Below are positions 9,059 to 45,931 of a stretch of 64,000 nucleotides of DNA, in pieces. Positions within the stretch are counted from its first letter, which is position 1; every line of letters begins with the position of its first letter. Location of the stretch: NCBI GenBank assembly GCA_018064405.1, contig JAGHVG010000003.1, positions 49,152 to 113,151 on the forward strand, in the 5' to 3' direction. Made by a program: the position numbers and the translations under genes. The notes beneath the pieces were generated by a model. That model was not told where the DNA came from. It saw only the letters and a list, made by a program, of their open reading frames with translations, and made no database searches. The DNA comes from Candidatus Enterousia scatequi. GTDB lineage: Bacteria > Pseudomonadota > Alphaproteobacteria > Rs-D84.

Positions 9059-10759
9059 TTATCCGCGCAGTGGTATTTCCTGTAACTTTTCGTAGTTATT
9101 TTCACGCATATCATGCAACAAATCGCGAACCTCTTCACGTGAATATCCTAAACGTTTAAAGACACCCCAAACCAACCAAAAAGATGATTCAATAGTTTCT
9201 GGGAATGCCTCTGTTACGCCAGATTTTAACATTTCACGCGAATCGTATAAATTACGTGCACGTGCATATATCTTTACGTTTGGTGCAATCGCTTTGACAG
9301 ATAACACTGCGTTATGTGCCGTTTCTGAATTATCCAGTGCAATTACAACTGCACGCGTATTACGTGGGTTAAGGCCAAAACTGCGCAATACCGCGATACT
9401 TTTCACATCACCATATGCACAATTTAATCCCATTTCACGTCCAACCATCACAGCATTTACATCTGTATCAATTGCAATATATGAAATGTTTTTGGCGGAC
9501 AATATGCGCGCAACAATCTGACCAACACGGCCGAATCCGCAAATTACAACAGATGGTTTTGGAATATCCATCAGATGCAAATCTGCAATTTGTTTTTTAT
9601 TACCCAAACGACCCGTACGATACATACGATCATATATCCACAAAATTAGTGGTGACGTTATCATTGATAAAACAATTATCGCGATTAATATTTCCTGATG
9701 ATGCAAGGGGATTAAATCAATTCCACTGTTACGCATCATCTGTAACATTAACAATGCAAATTCACTGCCCTGGGCAAGTAAAACACCGATAAAGGCAGCA
9801 TCTTGAATCTTTAATCTGCGCACACGTGCAACCATAAATATTGCGGCAAATTTTATACCAACCAAACCGATTAAGCCAACTAATATAAAATACCAACGCG
9901 ATGCCAGGAAAGGTATATTTAACTCCATCCCTAATGCCACAAAGAACATCGCCAAAAATAATAATGTATATGGGGTTATTTCAGCACTAATTTGATGCCG
10001 GAATATCGTTTCTGATAATAAAATACCCGCCAAGAACCCACCCAATTCCATTGGCAAGCCGGTCAAACTGATAACCCACGCCCAAAAGAAAATATTTAAC
10101 AATACTGCCAACAACATCGCCTCACGCGATTTGAAACGCGCAACCATTCGTAATAATGGATTTAAAATCGCACGACCGATTATAATCGCACCACCCACAA
10201 GTAATATTGTTAACACAGATATATCTATCAGTGTTGCACCCAAATCAAGTGTTTTGCCCGCCACAACTGGAAACGCCGCCATCAATGCAATAGCGACTAA
10301 ATCTTGAAATAACAAAATGGAAAAACTTTGACGACCAACATATGTATTTAACTGATTTCGGCGTGTAAGTGTTGGTAAATCCTGAGATGTGCTGGACATT
10401 GCCAACATTAATGAAATCATTAAACATCCAATAACACCCCACGATGTAATATCAAACAATATCGGGAACAGCATTATTGCAACCATTAAAACCTGGGCAC
10501 CACCAAAACTGATTAAAGTTCTGCGCATCGCCCACATACGTGACATACTGATTTCCAAACCAATCATAAACCACAAAAACAATATGCCAATATCACCCAA
10601 TGTTGTCCAAATATTGTTCAATTCAAACAGACCAAATCCATATTTTCCAGATAATATCCCCGCCAGCAAAAACGCAATCAAAACACCAATTTTTGCATGG
10701 TTCATTACGCAGACAACAACAAACATTATAGATAAAAATATTAATATAGATGTCATCAT
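9059..10759 (-). CDS. kefB: CPA2-family monovalent cation/H+ antiporter with a TrkA-N (KTN) domain (KefB/KefC-like)
   Basis: 566 aa with 12-13 TMs and a C-terminal Rossmann motif (GFGRVGQIVARIL...AIDTD). Confidence 0.8.
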   Translation of the reverse strand: MMTSILIFLSIMFVVVCVMNHAKIGVLIAFLLAGILSGKYGFGLFELNNIWTTLGDIGILFLWFMIGLEISMSRMWAMRRTLISFGGAQVLMVAIMLFPILFDITSWGVIGCLMISLMLAMSSTSQDLPTLTRRNQLNTYVGRQSFSILLFQDLVAIALMAAFPVVAGKTLDLGATLIDISVLTILLVGGAIIIGRAILNPLLRMVARFKSREAMLLAVLLNIFFWAWVISLTGLPMELGGFLAGILLSETIFRHQISAEITPYTLLFLAMFFVALGMELNIPFLASRWYFILVGLIGLVGIKFAAIFMVARVRRLKIQDAAFIGVLLAQGSEFALLMLQMMRNSGIDLIPLHHQEILIAIIVLSMITSPLILWIYDRMYRTGRLGNKKQIADLHLMDIPKPSVVICGFGRVGQIVARILSAKNISYIAIDTDVNAVMVGREMGLNCAYGDVKSIAVLRSFGLNPRNTRAVVIALDNSETAHNAVLSVKAIAPNVKIYARARNLYDSREMLKSGVTEAFPETIESSFWLVWGVFKRLGYSREEVRDLLHDMRENNYEKLQEIPLRG

Positions 10760-27085: not shown

Positions 27086-28003
27086 ATGTACAAATATGGT
27101 TTTTACCGTCGGGTCACATCCGTAGTTGCGGGTATTTTTGGAACAACCAAAGCTGCGCGCCGCTTAAATCGGGATAAAATTAGATATAAAGGATTGATTT
27201 CCACAACTGGCGAATCTGTTTTACCACGAATAAAGTTCGCAGAAAAAATACCTGTGGCGTTCTGTTTTGATTCACGTGGATGCAAGATGGCCGCTGTGAC
27301 GATAAAATCCCTGCTGACGGCATCTGATGGACGCTGTGATTATGATGTTTATTGTGTTATATCCAAAGATGTTGACAAATCTTTGTGCGATATTATTCGC
27401 GGTGTAATAAAGGGTTCTGGGTCAACAATACATTTTGTGACGGCAAATACTGATTTTGATAAATCTAACCATCATGGCTGGATCGTTGCCGTGTGGTACA
27501 GATTGATGCTGCCAAAATTGTTACCAAACGTAAAAAGAATTATATATGCGGATATTGATACTTTGTTTTTACGCGATTTAATAGATATTTATGAATACGA
27601 TTTACAAACGAATGTAATTGCCGCTGTTCCAACCAGAACAGATGGATATATAAATTCTGGATTTTTGCTGATGGATTTGGAAAAAATTCGCAAAGAAAAA
27701 CTTTATGATAAATGGGTATCTGTTTCTAAGGAATACGATTTTAAAAACCCAGATCAAGATGTGTTAAATCATACATTAAAGGGACGTATTGCTTTCTTGC
27801 CATTAAAATACAATTTTCAGTTATCACACGGTTCACGAATATTCAAAATATATTCTGAAAGTCAACTGGATGATTTAAAACATAATTTAGTGGTTTTGCA
27901 TTATTCAGATTTTATGAAGCCATGGGGCCCACGCAAAAAAAGACCTGTATTTTCTGAATTATGGTGGAAAATTGCTCGTCCGTTAGATTTATTTCAAGAA
28001 TAG
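27086..28003 (+). CDS. glycosyltransferase family 8 (retaining, LgtC/WaaJ/GspA-like)
   Basis: GT8 motifs: IPVAFCFDSRG...YDVYCV, DxD (IYADIDTLF), NSGFLLMDL, and the HYSDFMKPW C-terminal motif. Has a ~60-aa basic N-terminal extension. Confidence 0.75.
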   Translation: MYKYGFYRRVTSVVAGIFGTTKAARRLNRDKIRYKGLISTTGESVLPRIKFAEKIPVAFCFDSRGCKMAAVTIKSLLTASDGRCDYDVYCVISKDVDKSLCDIIRGVIKGSGSTIHFVTANTDFDKSNHHGWIVAVWYRLMLPKLLPNVKRIIYADIDTLFLRDLIDIYEYDLQTNVIAAVPTRTDGYINSGFLLMDLEKIRKEKLYDKWVSVSKEYDFKNPDQDVLNHTLKGRIAFLPLKYNFQLSHGSRIFKIYSESQLDDLKHNLVVLHYSDFMKPWGPRKKRPVFSELWWKIARPLDLFQE

Positions 28004-28078
28004 AGTTGTTTTTGCAACAATCTTTTGATACATTTTTGGACTTGTTATGATATAATTTTGTATAAGACAGGTGTATCT

Positions 28079-28850
28079 ATGTTGATAGAAAAATTTATAA
28101 ATTCTTGCAAATCTGATATAGATGTTTATGGTGGTAATAAAAAGTGTTTCCTTTTTGCAGATTATGTTTTGTTGCAAGGCAGCTTTAAAGAAAATGAAGT
28201 AAAAAAAAGAAATTAAAATCGGCAACGAATTAAAAAACAATGGTGTTAATATAATCCCAACCATAGAATATAAGGTTATTGGTCCGAAAAACGAATTGGG
28301 TTATTCAAAAGGATATATCCTGCAACCCAGAGCAAAAGGTGTTTGGTTATATACTCGTAATATGACAAATAGTGAATATAAAAAGAGATTACACGATATT
28401 GCAAAAATGGATTATCGTAAATTAGACAAATTTGTTTCTGATTGGATAGCTATTGTAGAGGCCGGTTTGCAGATAGACCCTAGTAAATGTGAAAACTTTT
28501 TTTATTCTGGCACTAATATTAGTTTTATTGATCTAAACTTACGAAACGGTTCAAGCAATTTAAAAGAGATTTTTTTAGAAATCATGTCTGTTTTAACTGG
28601 ACTAGGATTAAAATATCAAGGAACAAACATTAGTGATTGTATCCAAATTATAACAAATACAGCCGGTTTGTTTTTGAAAAAGAAGTTATTAAACATCAAA
28701 GACATTCAAGATGTTTTATATTCCCGTTATAGTTCGCTGCTTAATAAATTTCAAATCGCTAATATCATTACATCCCTAAATGCACAACAGCATTCTGGGC
28801 AACCAGCAAATAATACGCACTTGCTTAATGTTATGATTGAAAAACAATAA
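28079..28850 (+). pseudogene. hypothetical gene interrupted by a +1 frame change at an A8 tract (28201-28208); the two ORFs (28079-28216 and 28203-28850) would join into a ~255-aa protein
   Basis: Frame 2 reads ...ENEVKKRN* at 28216. Frame 0 is open from 28203 (KKEIKIGNELKNNGVNIIPTIEYKVIGPKNELGYSKGYILQPRAKG...) through the annotated 28296 ORF. The frame switch lies exactly in the GTAAAAAAAAG run. Confidence 0.4.
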
Positions 28851-28950
28851 AACCAACACATGACTTATTTATATTTTGTCAACCAAACATATCTTGACTA
28901 ATCATTTTTTTATGCAATCATTATCAGACAGGAAAAAGGTAAAACATAAA

Positions 28951-29967
28951 ATGAAAAAAAATGTATTTTCAAAAATAGCACTTGCGACAGCACTTGGGAC
29001 GGCTGTTGTTGCACAATCTAAGGCGCAGGACAAAAAAGATCCCGAACAACAAAAAATTGATATATTGTATCAGAAGTTGCGCGCAACAAAGGACATTTCA
29101 ACATATACTATGCCGGATTCATTGCGACATGTCCAAAGGACATACAATGCACTACGTGCAACAGTAGAAAAACAATCTGCAGCATTTGATTCCTTGATAA
29201 GCGTTAATTGGGATATGTATTTGCAAGCATATGACAAGTTTGCCGTTAGAATTGGCAAGCAATTTCAATTGTCTAAATATTTCAAACCATGGGAACTAAT
29301 TACACTAAAGAAACTGGTGCAAGAAGGTAGCCTGTATGCACCTATGGACTATTTTCAGCAAAACGCGCTTGCTAGGATAATGAATGACACAGCATCATTG
29401 GCGGATTTATTGGAATTTTGTTCCGATATAGATTTTGATGTCATATGGCAACATTTTGAAACAAAATTCTTACCCCGAGATTCATCCAATGAATACGACG
29501 ATTACTCACATTGGTCACCAATAGTTTTTATAGACGATAACATAACTAAAGATGTTAACAAAGAGTTGATGTTGCTGTCTGATAGTTGGGCATCGGCTTA
29601 TGTTGATAAACAAATCTATCTAATGAAGATTGATCGTGATAAGTTAATATCTTCGTTGGATGGCACGTATGTTGCAACCCAAAAGAAGCAAATCAACGAA
29701 ATGTACCTGAAAAACAAAGATACGTTTGTTGCTGATTTTACTGCGGAAAACGGTGGGTTAGATGTGCCTAATTTTAGAATTCCTGAAATGAAAGAAATAA
29801 AGACACAATATTTAAAAAACGATGCACGGATAATATCTTTCATGGATCAGTATCAGGAGATGTATTCTGCAGAAGACCGTCTACAAACGTTTGTTAATAA
29901 AGAACGCGAAACACTGGCTGATAGTTTAAACGTATTGCTAGAAAGACGGAAACAACGTAGCAAATAA
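28951..29967 (+). CDS. secreted hypothetical protein (signal peptide MKKNVFSKIALATALGTAVVAQS)
   Basis: 338 aa from MKKNVF; the annotated ORF starts 25 codons earlier. No recognisable domain. Confidence 0.5.
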   Translation: MKKNVFSKIALATALGTAVVAQSKAQDKKDPEQQKIDILYQKLRATKDISTYTMPDSLRHVQRTYNALRATVEKQSAAFDSLISVNWDMYLQAYDKFAVRIGKQFQLSKYFKPWELITLKKLVQEGSLYAPMDYFQQNALARIMNDTASLADLLEFCSDIDFDVIWQHFETKFLPRDSSNEYDDYSHWSPIVFIDDNITKDVNKELMLLSDSWASAYVDKQIYLMKIDRDKLISSLDGTYVATQKKQINEMYLKNKDTFVADFTAENGGLDVPNFRIPEMKEIKTQYLKNDARIISFMDQYQEMYSAEDRLQTFVNKERETLADSLNVLLERRKQRSK

Positions 29968-29989
29968 TCAGAGCATATTATAAACAAAA

Positions 29990-30030
29990 TCATGGCGCGC
30001 GCAGTTTTTCTGTACGCGCCATAAATTTTC
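29990..30030 (+). terminator. terminator hairpin ATGGCGCGC...GCGCGCCAT followed by a T-run
   Basis: 8-bp GC stem flanking AGTTTTTCTGTA, then AAATTTTCTTTTTTTG. Confidence 0.45.
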
Positions 30031-30095: not shown

Positions 30096-30170
30096 GCCCC
30101 TATCGTCTAGCGGTTAGGACATCAGATTCTCATTCTGGTAACATGGGTTCGATTCCCGTTAGGGGTGCCA
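30096..30170 (+). tRNA. trnE: tRNA-Glu (anticodon reads CUC), CCA encoded
   Basis: GCCCCTATCGTCTAGCGGTTAGGACATCAGATTCTCATTCTGGTAACATGGGTTCGATTCCCGTTAGGGGTGCCA. Architecture matches bacterial tRNA-Glu (GTCTAG.GG..AGGAC D-arm, 4-nt variable loop). Anticodon loop is UUCUCAU. Confidence 0.8.
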
Positions 30171-34015: not shown

Positions 34016-34870
34016 TCAATTACCGACCGACCCAAAAACGCCCGAACGGAAACCGGAATCGGACTGGACGTAGTCCGCACAGAAGCTAGCACAAGCGTAC
34101 GCGCAAGTGCCCGCATCGAAGAAGACGTAGTAGTCGTTGAACACCCAACGCGACACAGACGGTTCTGTCATCTTGCACCAGCAATACAGACTATTTTCCT
34201 CATCAAATGCTTCATCCGGATTGCCAGGTTTGGCATATGTCCCAGGCGTGCTGCTGCATAATGCCTCTCCCTTTATTTTATCACCTGTATATAATGTCAC
34301 ACCCCAGGTGTTGTCTTGCGTTAGACCGTATACGGACTCATTGGAACTATCTGGGTACCAACCATGAACACTGTCGTTGATGTATCCATAATCGCTTCCA
34401 CCTGTACTTGCATTAATACAACTGCTGAATCCGATGTCGTATGTGCCGGCAGAACACTGCAGACCCGACGATGCAGAATCTGCATACTTTTCAAACACAT
34501 ACTCGTTTGTCGTGGCGTTCCATATCATCATATGTTTACCAGACGTCGGTAATGTTCCAAGGTTCAGTTTCGTTATATCTATCATGCCCGCCAAATCTGC
34601 ATTTGTCACCGCACCATCCGCCAGATGTATCGTTTCTATGGCGCCATCCGCAAATAAATCTGTCCCAACCGTCGTTGCGACTACATTTCCCGAATTATCC
34701 GTTTGCAATACCATATTTTGTGTATAATTTGCATTATCTGCCTTTTTATCTATCTTGGCTTGCACATTATCGCGCATACTATTTACATGCGATACAGACG
34801 CTAAATCCGCAACAGCCGGTGATACAATCATACATAATAACGACAGTATACTTAATAAATGTCTGAACAT
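34016..34870 (-). CDS. secreted tail-fibre-like/Cys-rich family protein, paralog 1 (284 aa)
   Basis: Signal peptide ...SPAVA. N-terminus ADLASVSHVNSMRDNVQAKIDKKADN. Motifs WNATTNEYVFE, GSDYGYINDS and YGLTQDNTWGVTLYTGDKI. C-terminus YCWCKMTEPSVSRW...CAYACASFC...SVGN. Confidence 0.6.
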   Translation of the reverse strand: MFRHLLSILSLLCMIVSPAVADLASVSHVNSMRDNVQAKIDKKADNANYTQNMVLQTDNSGNVVATTVGTDLFADGAIETIHLADGAVTNADLAGMIDITKLNLGTLPTSGKHMMIWNATTNEYVFEKYADSASSGLQCSAGTYDIGFSSCINASTGGSDYGYINDSVHGWYPDSSNESVYGLTQDNTWGVTLYTGDKIKGEALCSSTPGTYAKPGNPDEAFDEENSLYCWCKMTEPSVSRWVFNDYYVFFDAGTCAYACASFCADYVQSDSGFRSGVFGSVGN

Positions 34871-34895
34871 ACTTTATCCCCCCGATTATAAAAAA

Positions 34896-35330
34896 TTAAT
34901 TACCACTAACGCCACCTGTTGGCGCAGAACCGCCATTACGACCAATGTTTTCCCACACAAAATTACCACTATCCGCATTGTATATCAGCATACATGACCC
35001 AGATGTGCATTTTGTCGGTAAATTCAATTTATTTATCCCAATACCACTTGCTATCTTTGCATTGGTGACATCACCGTCTTTTATCTTTGCAGAATTAACC
35101 GCATCATTCGCAATCATCCCAGACGCAATTTGACCCGTCTGCACCGCACCATTTGTTCCGGTGGTTACCAATGCTTTGTTCGTACCATTTTCAAATTTAT
35201 TATCTAATTTTCCAGAAATATTATCGTTCAAATTGTTTTCAACCGTCGATACATATGTCTTTGATGCCAAATCTGCCATCGCAGGCGATGTTAATAAAAA
35301 TACCCCTGCAATAAAAATAATGTATTTCAT
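34896..35330 (-). CDS. secreted tail-fibre-like family protein, paralog 2 (144 aa, N-terminal module only)
   Basis: From MKYIIFIAGVFLLTSPAMA. N-terminus ADLASKTYVSTVENNLNDNISGKLDNK. Motif CMLIYNADSGNFVWENI. Lies 25 nt upstream of paralog 1 on the same strand. Confidence 0.55.
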   Translation of the reverse strand: MKYIIFIAGVFLLTSPAMADLASKTYVSTVENNLNDNISGKLDNKFENGTNKALVTTGTNGAVQTGQIASGMIANDAVNSAKIKDGDVTNAKIASGIGINKLNLPTKCTSGSCMLIYNADSGNFVWENIGRNGGSAPTGGVSGN

Positions 35331-35566
35331 ATTTCCCCCTTTCGTATGAATTATAAAAACCACCGATTTTATTTGGTGGTTGGAGTTTAAGAACAATTAT
35401 ACAGAAATTGCGTGCATTATTCTTTATATTCTGCACACCCCAACCACACACGGTTGGAGAATTTTCATCTGTTTCAGATGCTGTATAACGGGTTCTTAAG
35501 CCCATCACGACAACACGTCGTGACAACACAATTATATAATATTTATAAAACACATGTAAACAAAAA

Positions 35567-35586
35567 AACGCACCAAATGGTGCGTT
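35567..35586 (-). terminator. terminator hairpin AACGCACCAAATGGTGCGTT after RNase J; an identical 30-mer recurs at 45181-45210
   Basis: Perfect 8-bp stem, AAAT loop and flanking T-run. Confidence 0.6.
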
Positions 35587-35588
35587 TT

Positions 35589-37352
35589 TTATTTCTGGAT
35601 AAAATGAATACTATATTGTGGTTTTTTATCTGCACCCAATGATGCACGAACCACACGGTTTGATGCGACCTGAACCGCCTTGGCAATGTTTTTTTGATCC
35701 TTGCGTTCTGCCTTGGTCAAATTATCAATTGCCTTGGTAATTTCAATCTGAATCTGGCGTTTCATAAATCCGGTATCATCAGATTCAAAAATACCAACAC
35801 TGGATACATCTGGCGTGCCCTTTAAAAATCCGCGTTTATCAACCGGCAACGTCACAAATACCGCACCATTTGATGCAACCTTTTTACGATTCTTGTAGAC
35901 CTGGTCATCAGCACTGCGTTCGGTTTCACCTTCCATCACGACAAAACTGGTTTCAATGGTTTCGCATACGTATGGCGCATCACCGTCACGCAGCGCAATC
36001 ATTTCACCATTATGCACGACCATCATATGCTTTGCACCACCACGTTCCATTGCCATTTTTCCGTTCAACATTTCGTTGATATAATCACCATGCATTGGGA
36101 TAGAAACCTGGGGGTGAACAATGTCATAAAACCGTTCATATTCAGGACGACCCGCATGTCCACTGGCGTGGATATTATCCGTATCAAATATAGTGTGCGT
36201 TTTAATGCCCATACGCGCCAATTTGTTATACAGGTTTGAAACATCCTGTTCACGACCCGGAATAATAATCGCACTGAACACAACCGTATCAGTTGGCATT
36301 AATTTTAATTCCTTTACCTGACCATGACACAGACGTGTCAGCATTGCGAATTTTTCACCCTGGGAACCTGTTAAGAATATCGCCTGTTTTTCCGCAGGTA
36401 AATCCTTGATATCATTATGGATATAGATTTCATCCTTGCCCAAATATCCCATATTTATAGCCATTTCGCGAAATTCAGGCAACCCAACATATGGCACAGG
36501 ATTTGGATTACTGCGTTCCTTGATTGCAGGAACACGACCCACCGCATGTGCTGCTTCGGCAAACATTTTCATACGTGCAATACTGCGCGAATAGCCCGTC
36601 ACAATAACGCGACCTGGGGCGTTTTTCATAATTTCAGTCAAACTATCGCGAACCTGGGTTTCAGTCACCTGTTTGGTCTGGCGTGATGCAGATGTTGAAT
36701 CACACACGCATGCCAATAATTTTGGATCAGAACCAATTTCACGCATACGCGCAAAATCTGTGCCATCTTCAATTGGGTTATCATCATTGAATGTCCAATC
36801 GCCTGTATGCAAAATTTTACCCGCAGGCGTTGATATTATTAACATCTGCGCTTCTGGCAACGAATGCGTGACATGAAATGTTTCAACCGTAAACGGTTTT
36901 AAATCTAACTTTGCACCATGATGGTCAAATTCAACAATATCCTTGCGCGGATCAAAATCCATTTCCAAACCTGCAAACGTTTGACGTAAAATTTCCGCCG
37001 GAAAACGTGTGCAATAAATTGGCTTTCTGAACTTTGGCCAAATAAATTTCAATGCGCCAATATGGTCTTCGTGACCGTGTGTAATGACAAATCCAACAAC
37101 ATCTTTTTTATGCTTTTCCAGCCATGTTGTATCGCAATATTGAACATCACCTGCACCGATTTCTTCTTCTAAGAAACCCATACCGCAATCAACAATCAGA
37201 TACTTGCCGCGATATTTATAAACATACATATTCTGGCCGACGTGTTCCAAACCGCCCAATGCCATAAAATATATCTTGTCGTCGTTTTTATCAGATTCAT
37301 GTGCCGGTTTGTCCGCGATTGGTGCCGGCTTTTTTTCCCTAACTTTTACCAT
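35589..37352 (-). CDS. rnj: ribonuclease J (beta-CASP metallo-beta-lactamase RNase)
   Basis: MBL motifs HGHEDHIG and DCGMGF; beta-CASP and C-terminal domains. 587 aa. Confidence 0.9.
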   Translation of the reverse strand: MVKVREKKPAPIADKPAHESDKNDDKIYFMALGGLEHVGQNMYVYKYRGKYLIVDCGMGFLEEEIGAGDVQYCDTTWLEKHKKDVVGFVITHGHEDHIGALKFIWPKFRKPIYCTRFPAEILRQTFAGLEMDFDPRKDIVEFDHHGAKLDLKPFTVETFHVTHSLPEAQMLIISTPAGKILHTGDWTFNDDNPIEDGTDFARMREIGSDPKLLACVCDSTSASRQTKQVTETQVRDSLTEIMKNAPGRVIVTGYSRSIARMKMFAEAAHAVGRVPAIKERSNPNPVPYVGLPEFREMAINMGYLGKDEIYIHNDIKDLPAEKQAIFLTGSQGEKFAMLTRLCHGQVKELKLMPTDTVVFSAIIIPGREQDVSNLYNKLARMGIKTHTIFDTDNIHASGHAGRPEYERFYDIVHPQVSIPMHGDYINEMLNGKMAMERGGAKHMMVVHNGEMIALRDGDAPYVCETIETSFVVMEGETERSADDQVYKNRKKVASNGAVFVTLPVDKRGFLKGTPDVSSVGIFESDDTGFMKRQIQIEITKAIDNLTKAERKDQKNIAKAVQVASNRVVRASLGADKKPQYSIHFIQK

Positions 37353-37582
37353 TTATAATCCTTTATTAAAGTTAATATTCACGCCACCACCATAAATTCA
37401 TTGCCAATAAAGATTGACTTTATTTGTAGTGAATCCGTGTGATGACGCACCCGTGGCAGTTTCCCCGATTGAAGTATTCATGGATAAAATATCTATTGGG
37501 GATAAAACCGAACATAAATATGTCCGCCCTGCTACACCCTATAAATAATAGTATTTTTATTCTGAAAATCAAGGTTTATTAA

Positions 37583-37604
37583 AAACGCACCATAATTGGT
37601 GCGT
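37583..37604 (-). terminator. terminator hairpin AACGCACCATAATTGGTGCGTT
   Basis: Downstream of the 37611 gene on the minus strand; a T-run follows on that strand. Confidence 0.55.
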
Positions 37605-37610
37605 TGGTAT

Positions 37611-39254
37611 TTATTCCTGGCCCTGTGGTTTTGGTATAACAAACGTATCGTTATAATACGACAAGAAACGCGTTCCTGTGGCACAATATATTTTTTGCAG
37701 TGAATCCTTATACTCACGAACCGCGGCAACCCAACGTTCGTTAATATCACTCTGGGCACCCTGGTACGCAACAAATCCTCCCAGCGCGCCACCCGCACCC
37801 GCACCAATCAAGGTTGACTTTAACCGTGCCTTGTTCCCCAAATCAACAATTCCACCATCAGATGCATCCTGATAAATTGGGTTAAAGAAATTCATGTCAT
37901 AGTCCGTTGCCCCCGTAGAATCACCCATATTGTTACGCAGATATATTGGACCACTTAATCTGCCACGCAAATCGGACCAATCTGATTTTTTCCAACCGAA
38001 TGGCTTATTTGGTAATGTGTTTAACATTTCAACCATAACTGCCTTGGCCGCACCATTTGGAATAGCCGCCGATTCCACAAGATAATACATAGCTGCATCA
38101 AAATCACATTGGGTTGCAACAGAACCGTTAACCTGTTGACAATATGCAGGCGACGCCACTGCAAATTTTTCCAATTCATCTGCATTCATATCAGATAAAT
38201 ATGTGACTTGTTTCTCACGATCCTTGATATTCGTATCCAAATACTTGTCCATATTGGTCAACTTAACCTGGGTCAGATTCACGATTTGACATGCAGAATT
38301 GTCACTTGTACACTCTAATCCGCGACTGTTTTTTATATCATAATAGTATTTTTTATTTTGGTCTGTTTGCTCGGTTTCAATGTACGCGCCCCACAGGCAT
38401 TTGGCTGATCGGCCATCTATTTTACAATTTTCAATTCGCATCACAGAATCGCCGGATGCCGCCATATTTCCAATTACACCACCCGCGGCCATGTTCACAC
38501 CCGTTGATAAAATAATATCACCTGCAACCTTGCCAGAATAAGTGCTGCCCGCCATCAATGCCGCACCCGACAACGCGCCAATTGCGGTTCCTGTGATTTT
38601 ACCCTTGTCTGTTCCAATCAAGCCATTTTTACCAACATCATTTTTGCCAGCTATGTTCCCACCAATTCCACCAACCAATGCCGCAGCAGCAATTTTTAAC
38701 CCAGCATTTTGTTTTTGTTCCTGGTCCATGACCTTGGTTACATCTTCTATTGTTGGTTCTTTATCCGCAGGGAATATGACATTTTCAGCCACAGCCGTAA
38801 TAGAATATTCAGGGAAATAATCAATATTACATTTTATCCCGTCGCCAGTAGCAACATTCGCGCGTGCCAAAACCAAGTCACTGCCGTTTTCACCCATTTG
38901 ATATCCACGCAATTCAACAACCGCGACACATTGACGCGGTCCAGCCGCAGACAGCCCTGCCGTTGGTTTATCAATCGCAAACGACCCAGTTGGGTAAATC
39001 ATAGAACACATATCTAAATCAGTGTCGGTCGAAATGTTATCCGCAACGACGTTTGGCGCGGCCACCATTTGTTGGTTCACAGGCACTGTTTCGAGAATCT
39101 GCGCAGTTGTTGGCGCAGCATATAAATTATTTTGCATATTCATTTTGGCGTTATAGACACGCGCAGAATTATTATCTATGCGCAACGCAGCCACGGCTTC
39201 TATATCTGGGACAGAAACAAACAAAACTGGTAAAATAATTAAACTTTTTTTCAT
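37611..39254 (-). CDS. large secreted protein with an internal glycine-zipper segment
   Basis: From MKKSLIILPVLFVSVPDIEAVAA. Gly-zipper-like stretch AAALVGGIGGNIAGKNDVGKNGLIGTDKGKITGTAIGALSGAALMAGSTYSGKVAG. Multiple Cys pairs. The annotated ORF starts 12 codons upstream at 39290. Confidence 0.55.
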   Translation of the reverse strand: MKKSLIILPVLFVSVPDIEAVAALRIDNNSARVYNAKMNMQNNLYAAPTTAQILETVPVNQQMVAAPNVVADNISTDTDLDMCSMIYPTGSFAIDKPTAGLSAAGPRQCVAVVELRGYQMGENGSDLVLARANVATGDGIKCNIDYFPEYSITAVAENVIFPADKEPTIEDVTKVMDQEQKQNAGLKIAAAALVGGIGGNIAGKNDVGKNGLIGTDKGKITGTAIGALSGAALMAGSTYSGKVAGDIILSTGVNMAAGGVIGNMAASGDSVMRIENCKIDGRSAKCLWGAYIETEQTDQNKKYYYDIKNSRGLECTSDNSACQIVNLTQVKLTNMDKYLDTNIKDREKQVTYLSDMNADELEKFAVASPAYCQQVNGSVATQCDFDAAMYYLVESAAIPNGAAKAVMVEMLNTLPNKPFGWKKSDWSDLRGRLSGPIYLRNNMGDSTGATDYDMNFFNPIYQDASDGGIVDLGNKARLKSTLIGAGAGGALGGFVAYQGAQSDINERWVAAVREYKDSLQKIYCATGTRFLSYYNDTFVIPKPQGQE

Positions 39255-39295
39255 ACTCTCTCCCCACCACACATATACACGCCAAGACAATATTT

Positions 39296-40381
39296 TTAGA
39301 ATTGCAATCTTAATCTGGCACCAACATCAATCATTCCCAGGCGTCCGCTTTCGTACCAATTTGTAAATTGGAACACAGCATCATATGGTGCTTCATAATC
39401 TGGGGGCATCCCTGTTGCTAACAATTGAGTTTGAGATACGACGATACTGCCAGACGTTTGCACTTTACCAAGATTGGCATAACGTGCAAATAAATCTAAC
39501 TTTAAACCACCAGACAAATCTGCCGTTACACCCGCTTCAAGCGAGAAAGCTAACCGTTCCACAGAACCACCGTTGTGATAACCATAAATATCATAAACCC
39601 CAGTAATAGGATTAGGATCCGAAGGATCAACTGTTGAAGGATCTTCAACAAAATAATACGGCCCACTATCATAAACAACATAATCGGCGATGGTATTAAA
39701 TGCCACCCCAACACCACCACCAATATACGGACGCAAAGATCCACCGGCAATATACCCTGTAAATGAATCAATATTATAATAAATGTTTAACATTGCCGCA
39801 TTTGCAGTAATTGCACCACCACTGGTTTTTGCAGGAACATATCCACCACTACCATCAGCCGTATCAACAGAATCAGGATAAGACAACCCCGAATACCGCA
39901 AATAAGAAACATCTATACGTAAATCACTGTTTACGGCGGCACCGACAGAAACCTGTAATGGAATTACTGTATCTGATTTAAAATTCCCCTCTCGAAAAGC
40001 ACCAGGGGCGTCGTAAGACCCAGATTCACCTGCATAATCAGCAGAAATGCCACCATTAACACTAGCAGTATATGCGGCAGATATACCAACATATAAACCA
40101 CTATCCGCCAAACGATCATAATCCGCAGGTTGATAATATTGACGTCCTGCAGTTGTGGCCGCCGTTCCAACACGTGGCAACGCACCCGTTATGCGTGTTG
40201 GCTGCGCAGCAACTGCAGAATTTACAGCCACCGTCCTATTCCCATTTGAAGGTAAATAAACAACCGGCGCAGATGCGGAAACCGCACGTCCGTTTTGATA
40301 CACCGGATACGCGGCATCAACCGATGTTGCATCAACAATCAACACCCCAGCCAAAAGCCCAAGAAAACCAATCTTTTTCAT
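39296..40381 (-). CDS. outer-membrane beta-barrel protein
   Basis: Signal peptide MKKIGFLGLLAGVLIV...VDA. Alternating amphipathic beta-strands rich in Gly/Tyr. C-terminal aromatic residue (...ARLRLQF). Confidence 0.6.
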   Translation of the reverse strand: MKKIGFLGLLAGVLIVDATSVDAAYPVYQNGRAVSASAPVVYLPSNGNRTVAVNSAVAAQPTRITGALPRVGTAATTAGRQYYQPADYDRLADSGLYVGISAAYTASVNGGISADYAGESGSYDAPGAFREGNFKSDTVIPLQVSVGAAVNSDLRIDVSYLRYSGLSYPDSVDTADGSGGYVPAKTSGGAITANAAMLNIYYNIDSFTGYIAGGSLRPYIGGGVGVAFNTIADYVVYDSGPYYFVEDPSTVDPSDPNPITGVYDIYGYHNGGSVERLAFSLEAGVTADLSGGLKLDLFARYANLGKVQTSGSIVVSQTQLLATGMPPDYEAPYDAVFQFTNWYESGRLGMIDVGARLRLQF

Positions 40382-40479
40382 CCTCGTCTGCTTTCCTTCA
40401 GACATAGTATATCATAAAATGTCTTTTGTGTAAAAGGTTTTATTACACCCCGAAAATACTTTTATATAAACAAAATCTA

Positions 40480-41502
40480 CTAAAAGACCACATTAACCCG
40501 CACACCCGCTTCTGCCTTGATATCGGTTCCATTTTGGGACTGTGCATGCGATTTATCAAACGTATATTCTGCAAACGCAGCAAATTGAATCATGTCGGTC
40601 ATTTGATACGCACCAACGACCTTTAACACATATTCATTCCAACCATCATTCATATCAGCAGTTTGTGCAAGCAAACTATCAACCACCTTTTGTTGCCACT
40701 CAGGGCCAACGATAGATTCATTTAATTTTGTATGAATACTTTTGATACTGTTATCCCTGTGTTCAATAAATTCAAAACCACCACCCACAGACCATTTCTT
40801 AGACAACTGAACAAATGCATTTATACCACTATTAATCTCATGCGTACTGGCCAAATCCACAGATATTTCACTTGGGATACCAACCATACCCATCGTAATA
40901 GGCACACCAACAGCAATAGGACTATTTTGATCTATCCTTACTTTGTTATTATGATTTCCAAATGTTTGCAAATATTCGCCATACGCAGACAACGTAAAAT
41001 TGCCCCACGTCTTGCCTAGTTTGGTTCCACCATACATTCCCCAACGACCGTTAGAATAATTATCATATGTAAAATTACCATTTGAATATTTACCCTCCAT
41101 CGGCATCAGGGCTGATAAATATGCCTCACCATAAACATCCCAAAGGATTGGTGAATCATCCGCTAAAATACGATACGTCAATCCGACACGACCACGATGC
41201 ATACCCTTGCGATTAATGGAATCATCCTGGGTCCACCCAAAACGCCCATGCACCGCCAAGCGATCTGTTATACCATAACCCAAATCTTCGGTAAAACGCC
41301 ATATTGGAAATTCGTCATTTCCGTCCATGTGTTTTTTCTTTAATGCTTCTGTATGATCAGAACGCTTATACATCAAACCCATACCTGATTTAGAATAAAA
41401 ATCACCCGCAGATGGCAAATACATCGGATGTTCCATATTCCCCGCGAACGCGTAACCCGTTATCATAGTGGCGGTGCAAATCACGAATAAAAAATGTTTC
41501 AT
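40480..41502 (-). CDS. outer-membrane beta-barrel protein (porin-like)
   Basis: Signal peptide MKHFLFVICTATMITGYAFA. Beta-strand periodicity. C-terminus ...GVRVNVVF. Confidence 0.6.
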   Translation of the reverse strand: MKHFLFVICTATMITGYAFAGNMEHPMYLPSAGDFYSKSGMGLMYKRSDHTEALKKKHMDGNDEFPIWRFTEDLGYGITDRLAVHGRFGWTQDDSINRKGMHRGRVGLTYRILADDSPILWDVYGEAYLSALMPMEGKYSNGNFTYDNYSNGRWGMYGGTKLGKTWGNFTLSAYGEYLQTFGNHNNKVRIDQNSPIAVGVPITMGMVGIPSEISVDLASTHEINSGINAFVQLSKKWSVGGGFEFIEHRDNSIKSIHTKLNESIVGPEWQQKVVDSLLAQTADMNDGWNEYVLKVVGAYQMTDMIQFAAFAEYTFDKSHAQSQNGTDIKAEAGVRVNVVF

Positions 41503-41575
41503 CACATAACTCCCTTTCATCACAGCGTAACTTTTAAGATTTTATACTAATAGACATACAAATGTCAAAAAGATA

Positions 41576-42814
41576 TTATTTATGTTTATATGCCAACACA
41601 TATTCAGTCAAATTATCAAATACATTTTCACACCACGTGCGCGGTATAACAATAGCATTTCCCTGACCTGCAGACATTTTTGATAATCTTTCGTTGTTTT
41701 TAGCATTGATTATTTCAGGCAACACAACATCACATTTTGGACCATTTGGCAAAATGAAAGTTATTGTATCCCCAGATTTAATTTCGTTACGTAATTCAAA
41801 AACAATTTCATTACCTGTATTTTTTGTGACCACCCCTGCGGCATGATATTCAGACGATGAACGTGTTGTTTCATAATCATGTGCGGTCGCGGGCAACGGG
41901 CCATCAAAAAATGCCGTTGTGTATCCACGCGATTCCAATATATTTAAATCGTCCATAAATGGTTGAGGATTAAAATTCTGGGGATCAGATGCCCATGCAT
42001 CAATCGCAGCCCTATATGCACGCACGACCGACCCAACATAATATTCACTGCGATTACGACCTTCTATTTTTAATGAATCTGGGGCGGACGCTAAAACATC
42101 TGCTAAACGTGGCATCAAGCATAGATCTTTGGAATTCATAATATATGCCCCCCGTTCATCTTCATCAATCGGCATTTCAATTCCCGATTCGTGTTCACGC
42201 AGAATAACATCATATTTCCACCGACATAGTTGTGCGCATGCGCCACGATTTGACGGACGTCCTGTTATGAAATTAGACAGCAAACACCGCCCAGAATACG
42301 CCATACACATTGCACCATGAACAAAGATTTCCAATTTGATATCGGGGCATTGTTTTCTGATATTAACGAATTCGTTATGAGAAACCTCACGCGATAGAAC
42401 ACACAACGATGCCCCTGCATTTTGCCAAAACTTTACAGACGCAGCAGAACATATATTTGCCTGGGTTGAAATATGTATCGGCATATCGGGGAAATTTTCT
42501 TTGCTCCACATCATAACACCCGCATCTGCGACAATTAATGCATCAGGTTTAAGGTATTCAATTACTTCACGAACGCGTGGCATATTGGCATAGTCCCGAT
42601 CGTGTGCAAACAAATTAAAAGCTAAATAAACTTTTTTTCCATGTGTATGTGCGAAATCGATTCCCTGTTTTACACCATCTATATCAATTTTTGCACGTGC
42701 GCGCATAGAAAACCCCGGCAGCCCTGCATAAACAGCATCCGCCCCATACAGCACAGCCGTTTTAAACGCATCCAATGTTCCCGCAGGTGCCAAAAGTTCG
42801 GGTATTTTTAACAT
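41576..42814 (-). CDS. peptidase U32 family protein (RlhA/TrhP/YegQ-like)
   Basis: U32 signature E-x-F-x-x-G-[SA]-[LIVM]-C-x-4-G-x-C-x-[LIVM]-S is present (EIFVHGAMCMAYSGRCLLS). N-terminal TIM-barrel region. 412 aa. Confidence 0.85.
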   Translation of the reverse strand: MLKIPELLAPAGTLDAFKTAVLYGADAVYAGLPGFSMRARAKIDIDGVKQGIDFAHTHGKKVYLAFNLFAHDRDYANMPRVREVIEYLKPDALIVADAGVMMWSKENFPDMPIHISTQANICSAASVKFWQNAGASLCVLSREVSHNEFVNIRKQCPDIKLEIFVHGAMCMAYSGRCLLSNFITGRPSNRGACAQLCRWKYDVILREHESGIEMPIDEDERGAYIMNSKDLCLMPRLADVLASAPDSLKIEGRNRSEYYVGSVVRAYRAAIDAWASDPQNFNPQPFMDDLNILESRGYTTAFFDGPLPATAHDYETTRSSSEYHAAGVVTKNTGNEIVFELRNEIKSGDTITFILPNGPKCDVVLPEIINAKNNERLSKMSAGQGNAIVIPRTWCENVFDNLTEYVLAYKHK

Positions 42815-43299
42815 TAACGCACCTTATTAAAGTTAAATATTTTTTTAAACACATTAGCCAATGAATGCTTGTGCATTGTTGCTGGTGTATAATTGTTCCT
42901 CGCAACATTTGGATATAATTGCGCCAATCTGCTTATGCATTGTTTTTCTATACACGACAAACGCCAAAAATCCGACCCAGCGTTTTCGTGCCCATCAATA
43001 TCATCAATATATGATGCAGATGCATCTGACATTAAATATTTTGTTGTATGCCTGTCAGCACCCGCCGACACAGAATACAATTCCAGTATAATTTTTTTTG
43101 AATATGATCCCTGTATTTTGCGCACTAATTCATATTTATTATCTATGACATACGTTATGTTATAGCGGTTAAGATTATCCGCATGTTCAAACAACCCGGC
43201 CAAAGACAAAGCCGTTCTGAAATCAATATTTTTGGCACCAGATATTGCATCCGACACTGCACCAGCATCATTCAATGACAAACTATACATGCCACACAA
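42814..43299 (-). CDS. hypothetical protein (161 aa), translationally coupled upstream of the U32 gene
   Basis: Its stop overlaps the U32 start by 1 nt. No confident family assignment. Confidence 0.4.
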   Translation of the reverse strand: MCGMYSLSLNDAGAVSDAISGAKNIDFRTALSLAGLFEHADNLNRYNITYVIDNKYELVRKIQGSYSKKIILELYSVSAGADRHTTKYLMSDASASYIDDIDGHENAGSDFWRLSCIEKQCISRLAQLYPNVARNNYTPATMHKHSLANVFKKIFNFNKVR

Positions 43300-43395
43300 C
43301 CCCCTTTGTATAAAACTATCCAGGGTGCATATTTTTTACCATTATTTTGAAAAAGCAAGCATTTTTAAATTGTCATGATTGAACAAAATAAAAAA

Positions 43396-43418
43396 ACGGG
43401 GCAATACCCGTTTTTTTT
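43396..43418. terminator. terminator ACGGGGCAATACCCGT with a T8 run
   Basis: Read from the sequence. Confidence 0.55.
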
Positions 43419-43878
43419 ATTTTAACCGATCCAATACCTTTTGAATTTTAGCCAATTCAGCTTGTTCGTTGTTTTTTTTGAATGCAGCGCTGGCCTTCAC
43501 TTGACGTGCTGCATCATCCATTTTTCTTTTTTTATTGGCCTTTTTTATCAATACATCTTTACGTTCACGTGCATAATCCAACAAATCTGTGAACCAACGT
43601 GATCGCTGCTGTTGCCAAGAATCATTATTAACAAAAAAACACATCACTGAATAAATATCTTTTCCATCCTTGACCACCGTTAACCTTTTCGGTTCTGTCA
43701 CTTTAAAGTGTATTTCCATATCATCCAACAAAAAACATTCAACGTTACCTTTGTATTCCACGCTTATTTGCCCAGATTTTCCTATTTTATCCGCCAATGT
43801 ATCAAACAAAGCCCTTTCTTTTCTGTATTGTTTATTAAAAATTAATGACAATCCCATAAGACACTCCTTAATTACCAT
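43417..43878 (-). CDS. hypothetical protein (153 aa), basic C-terminus
   Basis: ORF with a terminator immediately downstream. No recognisable domain. Confidence 0.4.
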   Translation of the reverse strand: MVIKECLMGLSLIFNKQYRKERALFDTLADKIGKSGQISVEYKGNVECFLLDDMEIHFKVTEPKRLTVVKDGKDIYSVMCFFVNNDSWQQQRSRWFTDLLDYARERKDVLIKKANKKRKMDDAARQVKASAAFKKNNEQAELAKIQKVLDRLK

Positions 43879-43967
43879 GGTAATGGTATCACACTTATTA
43901 CGCTAAGTCAATTTGTTGAAAAAACACTTGAAATCGTGAAAACAAATATGTAATATATGCGGTGCGT

Positions 43968-44043
43968 CGCCGGTTTAGCTCAGCTGGTAGAGCATCTGAT
44001 TTGTAATCAGAGGGTCGTTGGTTCAAGTCCGACAACCGGCACC
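43968..44043 (+). tRNA. trnT: tRNA-Thr (anticodon UGU), CCA encoded
   Basis: GCCGGTTTAGCTCAGCTGGTAGAGCATCTGATTTGTAATCAGAGGGTCGTTGGTTCAAGTCCGACAACCGGCACCA. Anticodon stem TCTGA/TCAGA with loop UUUGUAA. Confidence 0.85.
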
Positions 44044-44050
44044 AGAAATA

Positions 44051-44080
44051 AAACACCGCCCAAATGGGCGGTGTTGTTTT
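44051..44080 (+). terminator. terminator AACACCGCCCAAATGGGCGGTGTT + T-rich tail, after tRNA-Thr
   Basis: 10-bp stem. Confidence 0.6.
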
Positions 44081-44105
44081 GATATGTTTTGCGTGATACC
44101 GCTCA

Positions 44106-44881
44106 TCAATTGCCGACGGACGAGAAGACGCTAGAACGAATGCCCGAGTTGAACCGGACGTAGTACCCGCAGAAGTACGCACAATAGTTCGCGCAACCGG
44201 CCGCATTGACGCTGTCGGGGGGGGAAACCCAACGCGACACAGCCGGAAACGTCATTTTACACCAGCAATACTGTCCCTTATCTGTTTGGTTAAAGTTTTG
44301 GTTCGTAGATTGTGCATATGTACCAGGTGTGCTATACACGATGCTATGCCCGTTACTTTATCACCTGTATATAATGTTGCACCCCATGTTTGGTCTGTTG
44401 TCAGGCCGTATGTAGCGGTGTTACTGGTCAATGCACCAGATTCCCCAGTGCTATCATTCATATAGCCGTAATCTGTCCCATTCGGACCGGGATCTATACA
44501 CTGACTAAAACCGAGGCAGTATTGTCCATTTGGGCATTGTGAATGTGGAACAAGTTCAAATACAAAATTGCCTGTATTGCCGTTCCATACTAGGTTATAC
44601 CGACCACCACTCGGGCCTGTTGGTAATTTATCCTGTTTCGTTGAATCGTGGTAACTGGTTGTTATATATCCACTATCGTTCGTAAATGAACTTATGGTTG
44701 TTGGAACGGTGGGGATCGTTGGCGTATTGCTTAAATCATTATACGAACCTGTCTTTGCAACCGTCGGCAAAGAATCAACAACACTATCCACATAGCCCAC
44801 TGATGCAATATCGGCGTATGATATATTACATATTGTTATTAAACCTAATATTATAAATATTCGTTTCATTCCCTTTCGCAC
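44106..44881 (-). pseudogene. secreted tail-fibre-like/Cys-rich family protein, paralog 3, disrupted by a 1-nt frameshift near 44335-44345; contains a C8/G8 homopolymer (44217-44224)
   Basis: ORF 44252-44881 reads MKRIFIILGLITICNISYADIASVGYVDS...RYNLVWNGNTGNFVFELV...YGLTTDQTWGATLYTGDKVTGIASC, then derails. ORF 44106-44339 in the -1 frame continues STPGTYAQS...YCWCKMTFPAVSRWVSPPDS...CANYCAYFC...SVGN, colinear with paralog 1. Confidence 0.55.
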
Positions 44882-45085
44882 TCCCCCGATTTAATCTTGG
44901 TGGTGGCGTATCAATGCGCTAAATACACCACCAAAAAAACCAATAAGTCTCACAAATATAATGGTACATAAACCAAGGTTTTTGCACCGCCCCAAAACAG
45001 CCCCAAATCAAAAAAGCGGTAAAACCCGTCTATGCATAAGAATTCTGCGGGTTTCAAGCAATAATTATGGGTGGAAAATTTTTAT

Positions 45086-45133
45086 AAAAAAGTGGTTGAA
45101 AAAAAACCTTAGTTTTTTTTGCACCACTTTTTT
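45086..45133. repeat. 48-bp AT-rich palindrome (AAAAAAGTGGTTGAAAAAAAACCTTAGTTTTTTTTTGCACCACTTTTTT)
   Basis: Outer arms AAAAAAGTGGT / ACCACTTTTTT are perfect. The inner A8/T9 arms are nearly perfect. Located upstream of paralog 3. Confidence 0.4.
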
Positions 45134-45186
45134 GTATTTAACTGTTTGATTTTTGTATATATTTTGAAAGTTGTGAAGCCACAAAA

Positions 45187-45206
45187 AAACGCACCAAATG
45201 GTGCGT
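45187..45206 (-). terminator. terminator hairpin AACGCACCAAATGGTGCGTT after the thioesterase gene (identical to 35567-35586)
   Basis: Read from the sequence. Confidence 0.6.
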
Positions 45207-45208
45207 TT

Positions 45209-45931
45209 TTAATTCCAATAACACACAACATGTGCCTTAGATTCAGATCCAACACGAATCTGGTGCAAACTCTTGTGTGGGGTCAATTCAACATCAACGT
45301 TTACACTTGGTACATTTGCCGGTATTTCATGTTCAAAATAAATTTCTATACCTGACAATTTATGTGTGTTACGAAATTCAAACCCAACACTTTCGGTTGC
45401 CCAACTGGCATAAACCGCATTATTTATATGCTGGTTCACATCAACATCATCATAACGACAATTAAAAACATGTGTCGCGTTCGGATTAATTGATGGCGCA
45501 CGATTAAATTCACGATCCCACGCACGAACATTTAATTGTTCATATTGTGGTAGTGTATCATCCAAACGCATTGGCCTGCGCGTATTCATATTTATTAATG
45601 CCCACTGGCTGGTTGCACGAACACGAATCCGCCCATGCGCATCACGGATTTCATAATCACGAATTGCACGCAGGCCATTATTCTTAACCGGCCACGACGA
45701 CACCAGTAATTGTTCGTTTTCATGTGGTGCATCAACAATATCAACAAACATGTGTGTCACAACCCAACCAACACCATGCTGGGCACAATACGACCGACCA
45801 AACCCCAACATTTCCGCATTACGATCCGCAACCGCCTGTAATTCATTCATTAACATTACAGGACGCACAATGCCATACCTGTCACATTGATAGGTTTTTA
45901 AAATTCTCTCTTCCGTTGTTTTTGATGTCAT
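45209..45931 (-). CDS. acyl-ACP thioesterase family protein (hot-dog fold)
   Basis: 240 aa with two hot-dog halves. Conserved thioesterase features include NQHINNAVY. Overlaps the valS stop by 4 nt. Confidence 0.7.
   Translation of the reverse strand: MTSKTTEERILKTYQCDRYGIVRPVMLMNELQAVADRNAEMLGFGRSYCAQHGVGWVVTHMFVDIVDAPHENEQLLVSSWPVKNNGLRAIRDYEIRDAHGRIRVRATSQWALINMNTRRPMRLDDTLPQYEQLNVRAWDREFNRAPSINPNATHVFNCRYDDVDVNQHINNAVYASWATESVGFEFRNTHKLSGIEIYFEHEIPANVPSVNVDVELTPHKSLHQIRVGSESKAHVVCYWN

Follow-up and report, generated by a model that had tools for sequence, protein, structure and literature searches.

The mosaic adhesive trimer (MAT) fibres of Bdellovibrio bacteriovorus are surface-displayed proteins in which a signal peptide and a conserved N-terminal part are followed by diversified tips, some of them with novel folds, and which bind prey glycans (Caulton et al. 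2024, PMC10769870). These proteins, of about 1000 aa, form long beta-helical prisms with a beta-rich N-domain of about 130 aa, and 13 of the 21 end in an S74 chaperone-protease (PMC10769870). In our literature search, MATs were discussed only for Bdellovibrio-like predators. Here we describe three genes, named P1, P2 and P3, in a 64-kb stretch of DNA (the window: the whole of the 64,000 nucleotides analysed) from the metagenome-assembled genome (MAG) of Candidatus Enterousia scatequi, order Rs-D84, Alphaproteobacteria. We read their products as a mosaic family of exported, adhesive mini-fibres resembling the MATs, with a probability of about 0.5, and surface fibres for sticking to partner cells would be their most likely function. 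Enterousia and the other Rs-D84 members are uncultured farm-animal gut bacteria with genomes of about 0.75-1.0 Mb, devoid of most biosynthetic pathways and predicted to depend on partner cells (PMC12306168). An earlier description of the same DNA, made from the letters alone (the original prediction), saw in the three genes a family of secreted proteins with tail-fibre-like N-termini and a Cys-rich C-terminal module, possibly for host interaction in an intracellular bacterium. This last term is unsupported, since the source, an uncultured alphaproteobacterium of the gut whose genome is reduced, has a partner-dependent lifestyle by prediction only (PMC12306168).

The three genes and the modules of P1 are the following (positions are those of the window):

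34016 to 34870, minus strand: P1 gene, 284 aa (KBS86_00815, MBQ0013099.1), with signal peptide, type-A stalk, neck and Cys-rich tip
34808 to 34870, minus strand: P1 signal peptide, aa 1-21, MFRHLLSILSLLCMIVSPAVA followed by DLAS, judged by eye
34466 to 34807, minus strand: P1 type-A stalk, aa 22-135, a predicted helix followed by ADGA[IV].T..[IL] repeats
34490 to 34531, minus strand: P1 neck motif MMIWNATTNEYVFE, aa 114-127, with the tip-swap boundary directly past it
34019 to 34465, minus strand: P1 Cys-rich C-terminal tip domain, aa 136-284
34106 to 34138, minus strand: hypervariable loop of the P1 tip, NDYYVFFDAGT, aa 245-255, following the conserved SRWVF and preceding the first helix Cys, with the highest column entropy
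34896 to 35330, minus strand: P2 gene, 144 aa (KBS86_00820), with signal peptide, type-A stalk and neck, without tip
44106 to 44869, minus strand: P3 gene, with type-B stalk, neck and Cys-rich tip, frameshifted, 254 aa if repaired

The three open reading frames (ORFs) lie where they had been placed; P2 begins with the ATG at position 35330, which a Shine-Dalgarno-like aagggggaaat precedes, rather than with the TTG at 35396. P1 is a 100% match to MBQ0013099.1 (KBS86_00815) of the Candidatus Enterousia scatequi MAG, and P2 ends in ...GRNGGSAPTGGVSGN. The proposed paralogy is borne out by BLASTP: P1 and P2 are 37% identical over their N-terminal 126 aa (E=7e-22), P1 and the repaired P3 49% identical over their C-terminal 189 aa (E=1e-52), and P2 and P3 26% identical over 127 aa (E=1e-4), a weak, co-linear match that covers the signal peptide, the DIAS..YV segment and the neck. 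A tblastn search of the 64-kb window found no fourth copy of the family. The layout is that of a mosaic in the MAT sense, where a conserved N-module of 110-130 aa precedes either the Cys-rich tip or an unrelated one.

All three proteins begin with a Sec-type signal-peptide-like segment, as had been proposed, followed by an invariant [DN][IL]AS..YV, which in 35 family proteins of every sub-type stands straight after the predicted A-x-A cleavage site. In P1, a basic n-region and a hydrophobic core lead to A-V-A preceding the invariant DLAS, a layout shared by these 35 relatives; all of these segments were judged by eye. Export would take place through the Sec pathway, and cleavage by signal peptidase I would leave a mature N-terminus D-[IL]-A-S-x-x-Y-V. 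A lipoprotein reading was considered and rejected, given that the signal-peptide cysteines (LLC-M, ITIC-N) lie outside a canonical lipobox and the conserved A-x-A|D[IL]AS site is downstream. At the other end of the N-module, the neck motif L.T...G...[IVL][WY]N...[GN].[FY]V[FW]E closes both stalk types and is kept in P1, P2, P3 and their relatives. All the motifs originally quoted are present, even though P2 reads IYN where the other paralogues have [IV]WN, and so deviates from the quoted pattern [IVW]WN. Scans of P1, P2, P3 and relatives against Pfam, NCBIfam and PADLOC gave nothing significant; neither the PF03406-like repeats that had been suggested nor any other Pfam family was detected, including Peptidase_S74 in the family proteins and the YadA anchor PF03895 in P1, P2 and P3.

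Two types of stalk can be distinguished: type A, in P1 and P2, and type B, in P3 and at least four other paralogues of the MAG. The type-B stalk is built from the units TGSYNDLSNKPT and SFTNDSGYIT. The N-terminus of P3 has 59 relatives in IMG/VR viral contigs, with up to 87% identity over 31 aa (confirmed by tblastn), and the paralogue P0172 has at least 358, with 75-81% identity over about 50 aa; E-values in IMG/VR were computed relative to the candidate stretches only. The relatives of P0172 sit inside viral fibre proteins of 700-2700 aa with dozens of repeats of the form KQDTISD..IRSGA.AGATAVQP..LATVATSGSYNDLSNKPTIP (also given as ..LATVATSGSYNDLSNKPT), and P0172 itself matches annotated Synechococcus phage tail fibre proteins (E=1e-6). 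These three lines of evidence give good support to a phage-fibre ancestry of type B. For the type-A stalk, aa 66-106 of P1 match the tail-fibre family phrog_892 (E=8.5e-5) and aa 19-95 of P2 match the tail-fibre family phrog_28766 (E=9.6e-6); a type-A profile found no relatives in viral contigs. The ADGAVT.AKIADGAV repeat of P1 and P2 also occurs in unrelated repeat proteins, among them P0292, a distant repeat-sharing protein that is the only one to carry the YadA-anchor domain (PF03895). The likeness of type A to phage fibres is therefore rated as weak to moderate, and the tail-fibre-like N-termini of the original prediction hold strongly for the P3 type and only to that lesser degree for P1 and P2 (PHROG E about 1e-5). 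Searches of PDB sequences with the stalk and Cys-module profiles found nothing beyond a weak 'tail collar fibers gp4' at E=1.2, and a search of 5.8 billion proteins with the N-module profile gave no Bdellovibrio-named match, which is weak as a negative. We propose that these short stalks of phage-fibre modules (SGSYNDLSNKPT or SFTNDSGYIT in P3, ADGAVTNAKI-type in P1 and P2) would oligomerise, probably as trimers, as such repeats do in phage fibres.

Stalk modules so clearly of phage-fibre type could also belong to remnants of prophage, tailocin or gene transfer agent tail-fibre genes without a current cellular function. P3 is frameshifted and lies beside a tRNA gene, and one relative, L002, carries Phage_Bbp19 and head-to-tail connector genes (L002:15461-16984) about 7 kb downstream of its P2/P1-like cassette, at the contig end, which may be an Enterousia prophage. 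However, signal peptides, which virion fibres do not have, are present in all members, and no phage structural genes are found in the 64-kb window, as originally noted, or at four other loci. The window holds only housekeeping functions: gyrA, rpmH, RNase J, a U32 peptidase, an acyl-ACP thioesterase, valS, murG/ftsW/mraY-type genes, a penicillin-binding protein, AcrB, ComEC and YidC. In a related genome the dispersed paralogues are solitary, between mutL/nrdD and yrdC/VIT1, and in other relatives their neighbours are M23 peptidase/GrpE. In addition, the P2-P1 cassette is kept across lineages, with P2 78% identical, the Cys tip has no viral relatives, and the family is expanded and mostly intact despite strong genome reduction (PMC12306168). 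Functionless phage remnants are thus very improbable.

A profile built from 13 copies of the Cys-rich tip domain and searched against 1.84 billion cluster representatives recovered 1958 of them at E<=1e-3 and 803 at E<=1e-10. The tips of P1 and P3 are bona fide members, with profile E-values of about 1e-55 and all the invariant residues, which in P1 numbering are W189, G201, C205, C230, W231, C232, C256, C260 and C264 (the same set in the repaired P3); M.T.P..SRWVF and the tail R.G.F.SV are nearly invariant. The signature reads CWC[KR]MT.P..SRWVF ... C-x3-C-x3-C ... FRSGxFGSVG. AlphaFold2 (AF2) models the domain with high confidence from a 126-sequence alignment (predicted local distance difference test, pLDDT, 95; predicted template modelling score 0.90) as an antiparallel sheet against two C-terminal helices bearing C-x3-C-x3-C. 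The model had no fold match in PDB or viral structures, so that the fold is possibly new, and neither Pfam nor NCBIfam has a model of the domain, on which we found no literature. On profile and model, the Cys-rich tip is a real conserved domain, as had been supposed; its profile has no detectable relatives in viral contigs, and its restriction to three loci gives way to a large family of mostly stand-alone or tandem copies elsewhere. At least 11 Cys-domain genes are present in the source MAG, which answers the question of further copies in the genome; they include KBS86_00815, 01225, 01415, 02050, 02380, 02460, 02875, 03185 and 03320, as well as P3 and others.

Among the 163 best Cys-domain proteins, which are 109-6218 aa long and carry 1-7 copies, nearly all have an N-terminal signal peptide. 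The commonest form is a signal peptide plus the Cys domain alone (140-165 aa); stalk-fused proteins are a subset, mainly from horse-gut Enterousia, and elsewhere the domain is found together with Listeria-Bacteroides (Flg_new) surface repeats. The largest proteins (P0020, P0022, P0021 and P0170, of 2382-6218 aa) have 5-7 copies, in some cases alongside as many as 10 Flg_new/List_Bact repeats, and many such giants open with an unusual MAVFRRF...-type signal region. Organism-named matches are all hypothetical proteins of uncultured alphaproteobacterial or proteobacterial MAGs. A DNA motif scan (YCWCKMT.P....W) over 185,579 species genomes, so strict that it misses part of the family and cannot delimit its taxonomic range, gave 71 loci, up to 8 per genome. 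All belong to MAGs of Candidatus Enterousia or of uncultured (Alpha)proteobacteria, and those with a named host all come from animal guts (horse, sheep, buffalo, deer).

The mosaic nature of P1 is most evident from its orthologues. The Enterousia assemblies L001 and L002 each have a 144-aa orthologue of P2, 78% identical, and 20-30 nt downstream of it a P1-like gene whose first ~130 aa are 82-84% identical to P1 and whose C-terminus is an unrelated module, YTQLEYIESTGTQYIDTG (also YTQLEYIESTGTQYID) ... FFTNSGTGxFIAGPE, a tip type that is duplicated in P0005. DNA homology to P1 ends about 380-390 nt into the gene, directly past the neck, which is thereby shown to be the swap boundary between stalk and tip. 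L049 represents a third lineage, in which rpmH adjoins, as in the window, a P2-like/P1-like pair that includes the Cys-rich tip, the P2-like protein being 41% identical. What emerges from these alignments is a base that stays conserved while the tip on it can be exchanged, accompanied by P2, a partner without tip that is itself conserved. According to the mechanism that we propose, the conserved neck (WN..TG.FVFE) would bear an independently folding C-terminal tip, recombination at the neck would exchange tips, and P2 would probably serve as base, adaptor or co-assembling subunit, the most speculative step.

The alternative tip has no match among GenBank phages. Its last ~40 aa (FIPAKRNSDGEVGMYD...F.TN) are 60% identical to the viral contig L076:4333-4452, within a 32-aa open frame, which hints weakly at circulation of this tip type in phages too; as this 40-aa fragment in a 32-aa ORF is its sole IMG/VR match, a phage origin of the alternative tip is not established. 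Directly downstream of the P1-like gene of L001 (GCA_045627945.1) are two tandem paralogous genes of 75 aa (9447-9674 and 9868-10095, MNH.Q.WGAIDS.AKAKG...), without Pfam match and absent from the same place in L002.

Within the Cys-rich tip, variation is concentrated. Across 27 stalk-fused tips the core is almost invariant, and the highest entropy falls on the loop after SRWVF (P1 aa 245-255) and on the i+2/i+3 positions that lie between the helix cysteines or follow them. Since this hypervariable loop and helix face are flanked by an invariant core, the exposed patch on its rigid scaffold is likely a ligand-binding or antigenic surface. The tips of P1 and P3 would then be compact alpha/beta domains, locked by their conserved cysteines, whose variable patch binds a ligand or acts as an antigen, and a repertoire of no fewer than 11 such genes would provide a genome of less than about 1 Mb with a range of specificities for partner cells or gut surfaces.

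Rapid diversification would suit a secreted antagonist or effector as well, of the bacteriocin, toxin or inhibitor kind, in which the Cys domain is the warhead and the fibre piece the targeting device. The proteins are small, secreted, disulfide-rich and multi-copy, and phage-fibre modules are used for targeting in tailocins and lectin-like bacteriocins. However, the inspected loci have no adjacent immunity-like small genes, Pfam, NCBIfam and PADLOC gave no toxin, defence or bacteriocin family match, and beyond Cys, Trp, Gly and Arg there are no catalytic-looking invariant polar residues. Tandem arrays in giant repeat proteins also suit binding modules better than warheads, and we consider this explanation improbable.

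The third gene, P3, adds signs of recombination, together with two features of its own:

44334 to 44335, minus strand: 1-nt deletion in P3, TGT-A-TAGC instead of TGT-AAT-AGC, from the alignment with L021
44217 to 44224, minus strand: C8 homopolymer in the P3 hypervariable loop (RWVSPPDS), G8 on the plus strand; L021 is divergent and non-homopolymer there

L021 holds an intact relative of P3, 81% identical. The frameshift, which splits P3 into a 209-aa and a 77-aa frame, comes down to one missing A (TCGTGT-ATAGC in the window versus TCGTGTAATAGC in L021), and its repair yields ...GIASCNSTPGTYAQ..., matching the other paralogues. Either a recent pseudogene or an assembly error would explain the deletion, P3 being respectively inactive or mis-assembled. 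Between P3 (44140-44350) and L021:6060-6380, from different MAGs, a 127-nt stretch is 100% identical and stops exactly at the hypervariable loop, where divergence is complete, the flanks being 70-90% identical. This island of identity beside a diverged loop suggests recombination of a gene-conversion-like kind, which together with tip swapping may renew the repertoire. The C8 tract could allow slipped-strand phase variation, or could merely be prone to assembly error.

Several observations weigh against the reading of these proteins as fibre adhesins. P1 and P2 resemble phage fibres only weakly (PHROG E about 1e-5 across 40-75 aa), and tblastn of the P1 and P3 stalks against GenBank phages, a set smaller than IMG/VR, gave no match. 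For full-length P1, AF2 gave a poor monomer model (19-sequence alignment, pLDDT 55, below 50 in the stalk), with which a Foldseek search was meaningless; since the model fails in the stalk, we only infer fibre and trimer formation. With 144-330 aa, the family proteins are far shorter than known fibre adhesins, and exposure on the cell exterior is presumed. The stalk abuts the signal peptide, which leaves no obvious retention domain, and no outer-membrane route or anchor was identified. Finally, in 126 of the 163 best proteins no more than 5 aa separate the Cys domain from the C-terminus, with a conserved tail FRSGxFGSVGN, and this position and tail could instead reflect an anchoring or sorting role.

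If so, the Cys module would be a C-terminal anchor or sorting domain for the bacterium's own envelope or export pathway, and function would reside in the N-terminal parts, by analogy with trimeric autotransporters, whose C-terminus is cell-proximal. Multi-copy proteins usually have one terminal copy, the tail F-R-S-G-x-F-G-S-V-G-[NQK] is strongly conserved, and the domain is joined to very different N-termini, including the giant Flg_new-repeat proteins. However, in the commonest form, the signal peptide plus the domain alone, the anchor would have no cargo, and the internal tandem copies, up to seven per protein, fit it poorly. A domain for recognising an unchanging structure of its own cell would not be expected to have a hypervariable surface patch, P1 orthologues keep the stalk and yet swap the Cys tip for an unrelated domain, and P1, P2 and P3 have no transmembrane segment, terminal aromatic beta-signal or YadA anchor. 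We regard this role as unlikely, even though it is the alternative with most in its favour, and retain the mini-fibre reading, under which an adhesin or host-interaction role is a reasonable supposition. The original prediction was thus largely right in structural terms, its functional part being inferential.

The remaining features of the three loci concern their expression:

35531 to 35560, minus strand: promoter-like site TTTACA-18-TATAAT (11/12), upstream of P2 and just past the RNase J terminator hairpin, judged from the consensus match alone
minus strand: P1 Shine-Dalgarno sequence ggggggataaagtATG, read from the sequence
44052 to 44075, no strand assigned: bidirectional terminator hairpin with a 10-bp stem, between P3 and tRNA-Thr

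P2 lies upstream of P1 with a gap of 25 nt, and P1 has its own Shine-Dalgarno sequence. Given the promoter-like site after the RNase J terminator, the short gap and the lack of an intervening terminator, P2 and P1 probably share an operon, of which this site is likely the promoter.

Gene order around the cassette differs in the horse-gut MAG L049, where rpmH, the P1-like gene, the P2-like gene, the acyl-ACP thioesterase and valS follow each other (L049:354-5425). In the window, about 9.9 kb separate P2 from the thioesterase (34896-45931), a block with RNase J, three secreted or outer-membrane-protein-like ORFs, the U32 peptidase, two unknown ORFs, tRNA-Thr and P3. Since this extra block is bracketed by P2/P1 and P3 on the same strand, recombination between paralogues may drive genome rearrangement. 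The three consecutive signal-peptide ORFs (37611-39290, 39296-40405 and 40480-41523, minus strand) have no Pfam match; one encodes 559 Gly/Ala-rich aa and two end in beta-signals like those of outer-membrane proteins (...RLRLQF, ...VRVNVVF). A link between them and the fibre genes was considered and dropped, as nothing connects them. The two unknown ORFs, of 161 and 153 aa (42814-43299 and 43417-43878, minus strand), lie between the U32 peptidase and tRNA-Thr without Pfam match, and L027, another Enterousia MAG, encodes a relative of the 153-aa product at 40% identity. Further away, the region 28001-30000 has a GC content of 0.33 versus about 0.40 elsewhere in the window; its ORFs 28296-28850 and 28876-29967, without Pfam match, adjoin a family-8 glycosyltransferase (27086-28003) and tRNA-Glu (30096-30170), and the region may be a surface-glycan locus gained by horizontal transfer.

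Animal guts commonly harbour Rs-D84 bacteria, and this family may bear on how they attach to their partners. Secreted, mosaic, built in part from phage receptor-binding hardware, with a hypervariable tip and accounting for more than 1% of the genome, it is a candidate attachment and recognition apparatus, and it offers handles such as recombinant tips for binding screens and antibodies or fluorescence in situ hybridisation for finding the partner. The Cys-rich tip domain forms about 2000 clusters at 50% identity; lacking both a curated model and a structural relative in the PDB, it merits a Pfam entry and a crystal structure. Taken together, the family is best classed as putative cellular mosaic fibre adhesins built from phage parts, plus a sizeable, uncurated domain family with a possibly new fold. 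A broader and more doubtful proposal, which we offer tentatively, is that Rs-D84/Enterousia independently built a MAT-like cell recognition system, where captured phage repeats present a new-fold, disulfide-locked, hypervariable tip and about a dozen recombining paralogues set partner or host attachment; in that case uncultured gut Alphaproteobacteria would possess, in this tip domain, a major adhesion module so far overlooked, whether it stands alone or is repeated within giant proteins.

Compared with known systems, P1 and P3 differ from most of the uncurated Cys-domain family of uncultured gut Alphaproteobacteria, whose members are mainly stand-alone or tandem in giant Flg_new proteins. With the YadA-family trimeric autotransporter adhesins the proteins share a signal peptide and short repeat stalks, the P1/P2 repeat occurring in a PF03895 protein; however, P1, P2 and P3 lack the C-terminal YadA beta-barrel anchor and their polarity is probably opposite, with the variable end C-terminal. 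Phage long tail-fibre proteins (viral contigs L077-L081; Synechococcus phage S-H34 tail fiber protein) likewise have a variable receptor-binding end at the C-terminus, and share modules at up to 75-87% identity over 30-50 aa. Unlike the Enterousia proteins, which consist of 1-2 repeat units, a signal peptide and a non-viral Cys tip and are scattered among housekeeping genes, they are 700-2700 aa long, with dozens of repeats and no signal peptide, and are encoded in viral genomes.

The MAT fibres come closest. Surface display and trimerisation were shown for them and are presumed for the Enterousia proteins; the latter are 144-330 aa (3-7-fold shorter), lack S74, have the stalk straight after the signal peptide and carry a tip that matches no solved PDB structure, in a library that should include the MAT tips. 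We do not claim MAT membership, given the difference in length, the lack of S74 and a comparison of the N-terminal parts that covered their layout. Nevertheless, both are cellular, non-virion proteins in which a signal peptide, a conserved N-terminal part and a stalk related to phage fibres precede diversified, independently folding C-terminal tips, and both form multi-gene repertoires, in the case of Bdellovibrio in a bacterium that must recognise other cells.

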